Assembly: GCA_900315775.1 (NCBI GenBank)
Contig: ONAJ01000007.1
Span: 15,606-79,605, forward strand
Direction of reading: 5' to 3'
Length of the DNA: 64,000 nucleotides
DNA from: an uncultured Prevotella sp.
Lineage (GTDB): Bacteria; Bacteroidota; Bacteroidia; Bacteroidales; Bacteroidaceae
Shown piece by piece: positions 31,513 through 31,846 of this stretch (positions are counted from its first letter, which is position 1; every line of letters starts with the position of its first letter). The notes below the pieces were generated by a model. It searched no databases. It worked only from the letters and a program-made list of their open reading frames with translations, and was not told the DNA's origin. Made by a program: the position numbers and the translations under genes.

Positions 31513-31577
31513 ATCATTTTTTTTAATTTCAAAATAAAGAGAAAGGTTTTTCTTTTTTAGGATTATGGAAATTTTAA

Positions 31578-31604
31578 TTTTCGAAAAAAAGTGTCAGTCG
31601 TCAT
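31578..31604. repeat. Left arm of inverted repeat (27-nt core; weaker similarity extends to ~31544)
   Basis: TTTTCGAAAAAAAGTGTCAGTCGTCAT matches the reverse complement of 31781-31807 at 24 of 27 positions. Confidence 0.9.
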
Positions 31605-31615
31605 TAAAAAATCTT

Positions 31616-31623
31616 TACATTTG
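31616..31623 (+). promoter_or_regulatory. Orphan -7 box TACATTTG inside the IR-flanked segment, pointing right
   Basis: Perfect TAnnTTTG match with no ORF downstream. It faces the 22-bp repeats and the hairpin array. Confidence 0.35.
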
Positions 31624-31650
31624 GATTGTCAGCGCGTATGCTTATCCAAA

Positions 31651-31776
31651 GTAAACCTATGGTTTTGTCGGAGTAAACCCATGGTTTGGTCGGAGAAAAC
31701 CTATGCTTTGGTCGGAGTAAACCTATGCTTTGGTCGGAGTAAACCTATGGTTTTGTAGGAGTAAACCTACGGTTTG
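31651..31776. repeat. 22-bp tandem repeat, 5.7 copies (GTAAACCTATGGTTTTGTCGGA consensus)
   Basis: Units start at 31651, 31673, 31695, 31717, 31739 and 31761. Each holds the small palindrome AAACC-NNN-GGTTT, and five units end in GGAG. Confidence 0.95.
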
Positions 31777-31780
31777 CAGC

Positions 31781-31807
31781 ATGACGGATGACACTTTTTT
31801 TTGAAAA
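31781..31807. repeat. Right arm of inverted repeat (27-nt core; weaker similarity extends to ~31835)
   Basis: ATGACGGATGACACTTTTTTTTGAAAA is the reverse-complement partner of 31578-31604. Confidence 0.9.
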
Positions 31808-31846
31808 ATAAAAATTGAGAAATCCTAAAAACCATCTAAGAGCTAA

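Follow-up and report, generated by a model that had tools for sequence, protein, structure and literature searches.

Between a PAD_porph-like gene and a gene for a Fic protein with a winged helix-turn-helix (HTH) domain (fic), the 64,000-nucleotide stretch of uncultured Prevotella sp. DNA analysed here (contig ONAJ01000007.1, positions 15,606–79,605; hereafter the window) carries a short element, in which long inverted-repeat arms enclose a promoter-like −7 box and an array of 22-bp repeats. The initial annotation proposed an invertible promoter (inverton) or, alternatively, a transposable element of the miniature inverted-repeat type (MITE) at this site. After comparing the window with loci and contigs from other assemblies, which are designated by L-numbers (e.g., L003, L029, and L036), we arrived at a different reading: the segment is probably a gene-less, internal-deletion copy of an approximately 1.5-kb VapE/DUF3874 cassette and belongs to a dispersed repeat family, rather than being a switch. 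This reading draws on the dispersal of the element, the lack of inversion in assemblies, its deletion relationship to longer elements, the covariation of its arms, and the fold of the protein encoded by the longer relatives. The new observation is that arms of the same kind bound approximately 1.5-kb cassettes with a VapE/DUF3874 gene, which gives the miniature copies an unexpected parentage.

RESULTS

Longer elements with the same ends carry a VapE-like gene

L053 and L037 represent the two ends of a type-A full-length element at one chromosomal site, and the order of this element was found to be arm, TACATTTT box, array, VapE-like gene, GCAGC, and arm. The TACATTTT box of L053 is homologous to the TACATTTG box of the window and is aimed through the array into the VapE-like gene. 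The short element has these very ends, with the GCAGC junction among them, and is therefore derived from the cassette by internal deletion. Elements of another subfamily, type B, have the same 36-nt outer arm as type A and carry the core CATTACACATTACAC in place of GTGTCAKYCGTCAT. In L029, the 1465 bp between the type-B arms consist of a five-unit 22-bp array followed by an open reading frame (ORF) of 387 amino acids (aa), and this layout, with the 22-bp array and without the A-type box, recurs between the type-B arms of L059–L068. More distant cassettes were also found: those with 69% protein identity (L069–L071) have the core CATTCCACATTCCAC and lie between a restriction-modification/toxin-antitoxin region and the RNase HII gene, while those with 63% protein identity (L072–L079) have core A and an HU-HIG/peptidase M15 context.

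The arm-bounded cassettes are about 1.5 kb long and contain a single gene. Integrase, excision, and packaging functions are not present in the cassette, the neighbours of which are either the genes for HU-HIG and peptidase M15 or those of restriction-modification and toxin-antitoxin systems. In L059–L068 and L072–L079, the order of an HU-HIG DNA-binding protein, peptidase M15_3, a 65–69-aa protein, and the cassette is conserved, and the DNA past the cassette is variable and includes AbiEii, AraC-type regulators, and glycoside hydrolases.

The cassette protein resembles the Rep1 helicase of SaPI1

The 387-aa protein contains the Pfam domains VapE-like, DUF5906, and DUF3874, matches phage DNA helicase and primase PHROG families, and aligns by sequence with PDB entry 7pds (E = 5e-9). 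With its AlphaFold (AF2) model (pLDDT 86, pTM 0.75) as a query, the top Foldseek match over the full length was the same entry, the Rep1 protein of the Staphylococcus aureus pathogenicity island (SaPI) SaPI1 with double-stranded DNA (E = 7e-19, TM 0.67), followed by other superfamily 3 (SF3) primase-helicases. The C-terminus of the model, built as helix-strand-helix-helix-strand-strand, has a winged-helix topology. As judged from the model, the full-length relatives are predicted to encode a self-loading SF3 helicase of the SaPI Rep1 kind, the C-terminus of which forms a winged helix.

Rep1 serves both as a self-loading helicase and as an initiator, and the winged helix at its C-terminus binds short iterons located directly downstream of rep, which flank an AT-rich region in opposite orientations (PMC9371898). 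The cassette shares several traits with this replication module of SaPIs and phage-inducible chromosomal islands (PICIs) (Qiao et al., 2022, PMC9371898). Its protein matches the N-terminal domain, the SF3 ATPase, and the C-terminal winged helix of Rep1, its ORF is followed directly by short repeats beside an A+T-rich stretch with the copies oppositely oriented, and the repeat type co-varies with the C-terminal domain. However, the approximately 1.5-kb cassette has no integrase, packaging, or regulatory genes, its two repeat sets stand at opposite ends instead of surrounding one central AT-rich region, and an extra 22-bp array lies upstream of the gene. A further difference is that gene-less miniature copies are scattered in the chromosome, as in the window, which has no rep gene.

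The arm cores covary and follow the type of the C-terminal domain

The core of each arm is a pair of 7-nt half-repeats. Both arms of each element have cores of one type, which are identical or nearly so, and three core types were found overall; in the window, the two cores are of the same type and match at 12 of 14 positions. In the cassettes, the right arm core begins 0–8 nt past the stop codon. Covariation was followed over 49 arm-arm pairs in a set of seven elements representing the three core types. Fifteen of the 49 pairs changed on both sides, 10 of these within the 15-nt core, and 37 compensated cells were counted compared with 17 ± 3 in shuffles, none of 500 shuffles reaching 37. Sliding the register gave at most 10 compensated cells.

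The grouping by core type is seen in the C-terminal domain of the protein and not in the ATPase or N-terminal domains. In the C-terminal domain (306–387), L037 (core A) is 57–60% identical to L072 (core A) and 28–31% to L059 (core B), while the corresponding values are 76% and 79% for the ATPase domain and 60% and 69% for the N-terminal domain. The covariation suggests that the arms are functional, and we propose the core as the recognition site to which the C-terminal domain of the type-A VapE/Rep-like protein would bind. If this domain reads pairs of half-repeats, it would explain both the matching cores of an element and the fact that the core type follows the domain type.

The short elements form a dispersed family in rumen Prevotella

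An outer-arm pattern built from four arms was scanned through one genome per species (185,579 species), which revealed 11 arms on 8 contigs, all belonging to one Prevotella metagenome-assembled genome (MAG). The copies of this MAG include complete 252-bp ones with unrelated flanks (L030, L035, and L036) and several that are cut by contig ends; L038 is another complete copy, the flanks of which are likewise unrelated to those of the other copies. Over all loci, at least seven left/right flank combinations were found. The short elements range from 230 to 274 bp, are non-coding, and have the termini TTTAGGATT...AATCCTAAA. Many contigs break inside the element because it is multi-copy. In most copies, the left gene is transcribed leftward with its 5′-end 90–260 bp from the left arm and the right gene presents its 3′-end to the element, thus the box is antisense to both neighbours.

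No BLAST match of the 429-bp repeated unit of the window was found in plasmid and phage collections. In viral contigs, neither the outer-arm pattern nor core A occurred, and the single match of core B was a chance one within coding sequence without arm context. The family seems to be specific to a lineage of rumen Prevotella. The window itself matches a scaffold of a cattle-rumen metagenome (ENA ERZ28614891), and its closest reference genome is an uncultured Prevotella MAG with about 92% identity across 3.6 kb.

Differences in gene content were also observed beside the element. The cotH–fic block (28579–31493 in the window) is missing at the matching site of a related Prevotella MAG (L036, 3578–3581), where the element directly abuts a 677-aa ORF, and in L013 and L014, a peptidase S28 gene replaces the PAD-like gene upstream of the element. 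Breakpoints of gene order are marked by the element.

Interiors are exchanged between identical ends

Three loci were found at which the interior differs between strains that have near-identical flanks and the same outermost termini. At the fic locus, the window has a 274-bp type-A element, while L003–L005 have a type-B one with a 448-bp interior, an extra arm, and an inserted AAA_14/DUF4143 gene. At the VapE locus, the flanks of L029 (type B) and L037 (type A) are 99% identical and the interiors 72%, and at the AraC locus, the type-A element of L038 is matched by a type-B element in L088, inside which a partial type-A element is nested. The exchange breakpoints lie within the arms and, where they can be placed (fic and VapE loci), at the boundary of the outer arm and the core. 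In L003 (1461–2717; also in L004 and L005), the AAA_14/DUF4143 ATPase gene stands between the element and fic, and beside it there are a third type-B arm and approximately 90 bp left over from the 3′-end of the VapE-like gene.

Structure of the element at the fic locus

The features of the locus are listed in Table 1. Most of the geometry described in the initial annotation was reproduced. A repeat search returned arms of 51 nt each (31554–31604 and 31781–31831), which are 82% complementary and separated by a 176-nt spacer, and the 27-nt core 31578–31604 matched the opposite strand of 31781–31807 at 24 of 27 positions, with no further match in the 64 kb and none in 100 shuffles. The perfect −7 box, the 22-bp array, and the three hairpins followed by a T-run were likewise found where they had been placed, and 31465–32127 proved to be the longest gap in the ORF map of the window. 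The extent of the unit, in turn, had been underestimated at about 290 bp: the homology to copies at several other loci spans 31494–31922, that is, 429 bp.

The sole ORF within the short element is a frame-unstable read across the 22-bp array. All genes flanking the element are on the − strand. A left module of about 51 nt with a leftward −7 box precedes fic in the window and a 677-aa ORF in L036, L045, and L051. Since fic has its own −7 box outside the repeat, it does not need the internal TACATTTG box, which is a putative promoter. The module called hp3, located right of the right arm, contains a terminator-like site on the + strand (31890–31910), the T-runs of the − strand being shorter; it stands next to L032, L033, L036, and the fic-locus copies and is missing beside L030, L035, L038, L041, L043, L049, and L018. 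Right of hp3, a second perfect −7 box (TACATTTG on the − strand) was noticed at 31928–31935. A transcript from this box would cross the hairpins and the entire element toward fic, and the arms could pair in such an RNA (fold z = −6.4).

TABLE 1 Coordinates of the fic-locus features and of spacers filled by 7-bp repeats in the window
Feature	Position	Strand	Remarks
cotH	28666–30408	−	
Fic + winged-HTH gene (fic)	30421–31464	−	ATG at 31464
Left-flank module	31494–31553	−	Accompanies many copies; homology with L036 begins at 31494
−7 box TATATTTG (+ strand: CAAATATA, 31505–31512)	31512→31505	−	41 bp upstream of the fic ATG, outside the repeat
Left arm, outer part	31554–31589	+	36 nt, 83% A+T, starts with terminus TTTTTAGGATT; common to types A and B
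Left arm core, type A AGTGTCAGTCGTCAT	31590–31604	+	Two 7-nt half-repeats containing GTCA
Leader	31605–31649	+	93–100% identity among all type-A copies
−7 box TACATTTG	31616–31623	+	Inside the leader, points right
22-bp tandem array, consensus AGTAAACCTATGGTTTGGTCGG	31650–31776	+	5.8 copies, 89% matches
GCAGC junction	31776–31780	+	Precedes the right arm core; follows the VapE-like ORF in full-length L037
Right arm core, type A, inverted ATGACGGATGACACT	31781–31795	+	
Right arm, outer part	31796–31831	+	36 nt, 86% A+T, ends with AATCCTAAAAA
hp3 module	31832–31922		Three 22-nt hairpin units (31846–31909), then T-run; hairpins and T-run together 31846–31915
PAD_porph-like gene	32128–34176	−	
Spacers with tandem 7-bp repeats	9250–9319, 12375–12416, 23408–23447, 28628–28661, 41888–41925, 54819–54867, 61640–61685		

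The 22-bp array resembles an iteron array

Sixty-nine array units in 17 distinct alleles were compared. All units have an invariant AAACC.A.G.TTT skeleton, while 41% of the units show a G/C switch at position 13 that is not balanced by a change at position 7, thus no RNA stem appears to be under selection. The arrays of the alleles comprise 3.7, 4.7, or 5.7 units, and at the fic locus, those from elsewhere mostly have five units compared with six in the window. In distant cassettes, the 22-bp period is preserved with a different unit sequence. The array sequence tracks the lineage and not the arm-core type, therefore the protein binding the array need not be the C-terminal domain. These features of the array agree better with phased sites for a protein than with a structured RNA, and the array may be regarded as iteron-like. 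The iteron arrays of plasmids provide a parallel, for example, the R6K gamma origin, which has seven 22-bp iterons: the array shares with them the 22-bp direct tandem repeats, an invariant skeleton, a phasing of about two helical turns, and the position beside a gene for a replication-type protein. Unlike these plasmid arrays, the element is chromosomal, multi-copy, and bounded by long inverted repeats, and it has no Rep_3-type initiator.

Other repeats and genes of the window

At least seven short intergenic spacers are nearly filled by tandem 7-bp repeats (e.g., GGTTAGA ×5–7, TCTAAAC ×6, and CGAGATG ×5; Table 1), and next to the array at 28628 lies a GGTTTTTCTTTGGTTTTC motif, which is also found at the extended left flank of the element. 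At 5261–5341, in a spacer separating two ORFs of the − strand, the 10-bp sequence TTCCTAGGCG, containing the palindrome CCTAGG in each unit, is repeated eight times after a T-rich run of 31 nt. Three ORFs, two of which are Endonuclease_1 paralogues, share a similar 3′-terminal segment of about 120 nt (18488–18633, 19514–19632, and 24997–25125) with runs of AATTCTC/AATTGAG heptamers. This segment, which also matches L029 and L036, may encode a common C-terminal sorting domain.

Homologues of the Fic-HTH protein with 89–91% identity (L080–L087) were found in unrelated neighbourhoods (Vsr, nucleoside deoxyribosyltransferase, NUDIX, Schlafen-like ATPase, and restriction enzymes), which suggests that the fic gene moves between defence-island-like regions.

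DISCUSSION

Points that weigh against the deletion-copy reading

Several observations do not fit easily with the view that the fic-locus segment is a deletion copy of a VapE/DUF3874 cassette whose arms are read by the cassette protein. There is no VapE-like gene in the window, and in the reference MAG, the single cassette observed belongs to type B and the short copies mostly to type A, thus a cognate protein in the same genome is only putative. Only the type-A short copies and their close relatives have a perfect −7 box; L072 has a degenerate one and L059 and L069 have none, so that the box is no more than a putative promoter. The link between the core and the C-terminal domain comes from four protein lineages only, and the likeness of the two arms could also be produced by gene conversion between them, which needs no binding protein. 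In the full-length cassettes, the cores are 1.4 kb apart, unlike in the compact SaPI origin. Direct repeats indicating a target-site duplication were not found around any complete copy, no head-to-head arm junctions, as expected for circular or tandem forms, occurred in the compared loci, and the relatives at the fic and AraC loci offered no clean empty site, so that mobility is deduced from the dispersal only. Finally, assemblies are consensus sequences, from which a rare inversion in a subpopulation would escape.

In the search for an empty site, the distant Fic homologues (89–91% identity) were found in unrelated, defence-island-like contexts, and the relatives at the AraC locus turned out to be another cassette swap and one relative with unrelated downstream DNA.

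Alternative explanations

According to the second proposal of the initial annotation, the element would be an ordinary MITE, that is, a non-autonomous DNA transposon, the TTTAGGATT termini of which are recognised by a DDE transposase acting in trans, while the internal minisatellite and the promoter are passengers, as in the BrickBuilt elements of Porphyromonas gingivalis. Part of this description holds: the element is small, A+T-rich, non-coding, and intergenic, it has terminal inverted repeats, and it is dispersed over at least 6–8 loci in one genome with at least seven flank combinations, type-A copies even being nested within type-B short elements. However, two classical hallmarks, the target-site duplication and a transposase-encoding parent, were not found. 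None of the complete copies shows the former, and the longer elements with these ends encode only the Rep1-like helicase, while no transposase partner was seen in the DNA examined, in which the reference genome was read in 8-kb pieces only. The arms of 49–51 nt with a swappable inner core tracking the C-terminal domain of the helicase also weigh against a MITE, and alleles sharing their outermost termini at one site point to replacement by recombination, not to independent insertion. The MITE explanation comes much closer than the inverton, so that the initial interpretation as a whole is partly supported, yet we consider a MITE unlikely.

The architectural parallel with BrickBuilt (Klein et al., 2015, PMC4596501) deserves a closer comparison. 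BrickBuilt is present in about 19 dispersed intergenic copies in P. gingivalis, has promoter activity, and its target-site duplications are ambiguous or absent; it is composed of 23-nt units and has 12-nt IS5-type terminal repeats (GAGACCTTTGCA) in common with ISPg transposase elements (PMC4596501). The Prevotella element has a similar dispersed architecture in another Bacteroidales host. Its units, in contrast, are 22 nt long (AGTAAACCTATGGTTTGGTCGG) and of unrelated sequence, its 49–51-nt arms end in TTTAGGATT, and the gene of its longer relative is one for a Rep1-like helicase and not for an IS5 transposase. No sequence similarity was detected between the two, and neither the minisatellite nor the terminal repeats of BrickBuilt are present in the element.

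The element could also be a multi-copy small-RNA gene, where the box at 31616 starts an approximately 290-nt structured RNA composed of 22-nt modules and ended by hp3, which acts in trans or antisense to the 3′-end of the upstream operon, the inverted repeat of the DNA being incidental. The perfect −7 box kept in all type-A copies, the terminator-like site on the + strand, the predicted fold (z = −6.3), and the orientation bias, most copies having the box antisense to the genes beside them, are in line with this possibility. On the other hand, a low z-score is expected from any tandem or inverted repeat, and the inverted repeat cannot be the stem of this transcript because the left arm is upstream of the box. 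An RNA structure of the short copies also had to be rejected on the variation among them, since the uncompensated switch at position 13 breaks the dyad of the units and none of the 84 predicted pairs was compensated. Moreover, hp3 is missing from many copies, the same leader precedes a protein-coding gene in the full-length relatives, and the scan of 31000–32600 against Rfam at permissive E-values gave no family, only sub-threshold noise. Altogether, a small-RNA gene seems quite improbable.

The inverton hypothesis was that a recombinase acting in trans flips the 176-bp segment so that the TACATTTG box either drives fic–cotH or points away. In its favour, inverted repeats do flank a short segment with a perfect −7 box. 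Several homologous copies of segments of this kind, about 180 bp long and provided with a TAnnTTTG box, occur per genome among the invertible promoters of Bacteroidales, which are exemplified by the Mpi-controlled polysaccharide promoters of Bacteroides fragilis. The longer relatives of the element, however, enclose a 1.2-kb gene with its own leader between arms of the same kind, and the arms are 2–3 times longer than those of the invertible promoters. To follow its orientation, the fic locus was collected from other assemblies via close Fic variants, and contigs retaining the fic-side arm with the adjoining interior were taken as informative. In all 19 informative contigs, which came from other samples, the box adjoins the fic-side arm as in the window. 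An inverted interior would read left arm + GCTGCAAACC, and the corresponding pattern of the flipped junction (left-type outer arm, core, and GCTGC) had no match among all JGI metagenome contigs, compared with 16 canonical junctions (eight box-side and eight array-side) in the same collection. The general core pattern occurred there at 22 loci, of which nine were chance matches without arm context and 13 were real, the latter also including two hybrid arms, L037 and L053.

Further observations that could speak for inversion mostly have other explanations. The frequent contig ends inside the element are accounted for by its multiple copies, and the related cassette of L003–L005, in which the box and the array have opposite polarity at the fic site, is a different allele and not a flip, as shown by its type-B core, its interior of 448 bp, and its additional arms. 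The likeness of the two arms of each element, which recombination between them could also yield, does speak for an inverton. The idea that the flipped box drives fic–cotH is contradicted by the −7 box that fic has outside the element and by the other loci, where the box mostly faces the 3′-end of a convergent gene and, in most copies, no gene to drive. The genes checked at 17.6–42.9 kb of the window included neither a recombinase nor a transposase gene, and the initial annotation had likewise noted no recombinase gene in the window. With no polymorphism of orientation in any assembly, the inverton is very improbable: the element is most probably not a phase-variable switch, and fic and cotH are not under the control of one.

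A chromosomal oriC was rejected, since the element is multi-copy and has only one 8-of-9 DnaA-box-like site (TTATCCAAA, 31643, found by eye).

A possible mechanism and its implications

Returning to the cassette origin of the segment, the conserved outer arms would serve as handles of recombination, either homologous or site-specific, and the C-terminal domain would read the two 7-nt half-repeats that make up each core, while the leader would offer a further set of protein-binding sites in the 22-bp array, phased at two helical turns. On this view, the cis-sites of the window copy would be orphans, to be served in trans by a VapE-like protein. Provided that the TACATTTG box is active, transcription from it would yield a non-coding RNA of approximately 290 nt, which would be antisense in the direction of the 3′-end of the PAD-like gene and end at hp3. 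Going further, the arms, the array, and the gene of the Rep1-like helicase could conceivably constitute a minimal selfish cassette of Bacteroidota of a kind not described before. In such a cassette, the helicase would recognise, through its swappable winged helix, matching 7-nt repeat pairs at both ends of its own unit and in gene-less copies, and it would drive their local replication, their exchange, or their spread with no need of a transposase or an integrase; this proposal is tentative, and we hold it to be rather doubtful.

The element represents a lineage-specific repeat family in abundant rumen Prevotella, which fragments assemblies, marks gene-order breakpoints, and places promoter-like and terminator-like modules beside genes. 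Inverton calling from the geometry of inverted repeats and promoters alone would be misled at the fic locus. If the minimal selfish cassette exists, the window element would be an orphan origin or end-pair and not a transposase-type MITE. If the protein acts on the arms, a replication initiator, rather than a transposase, would own a dispersed family of cis-sites, and the widespread VapE/DUF3874 proteins of Bacteroidota would have a testable DNA target.

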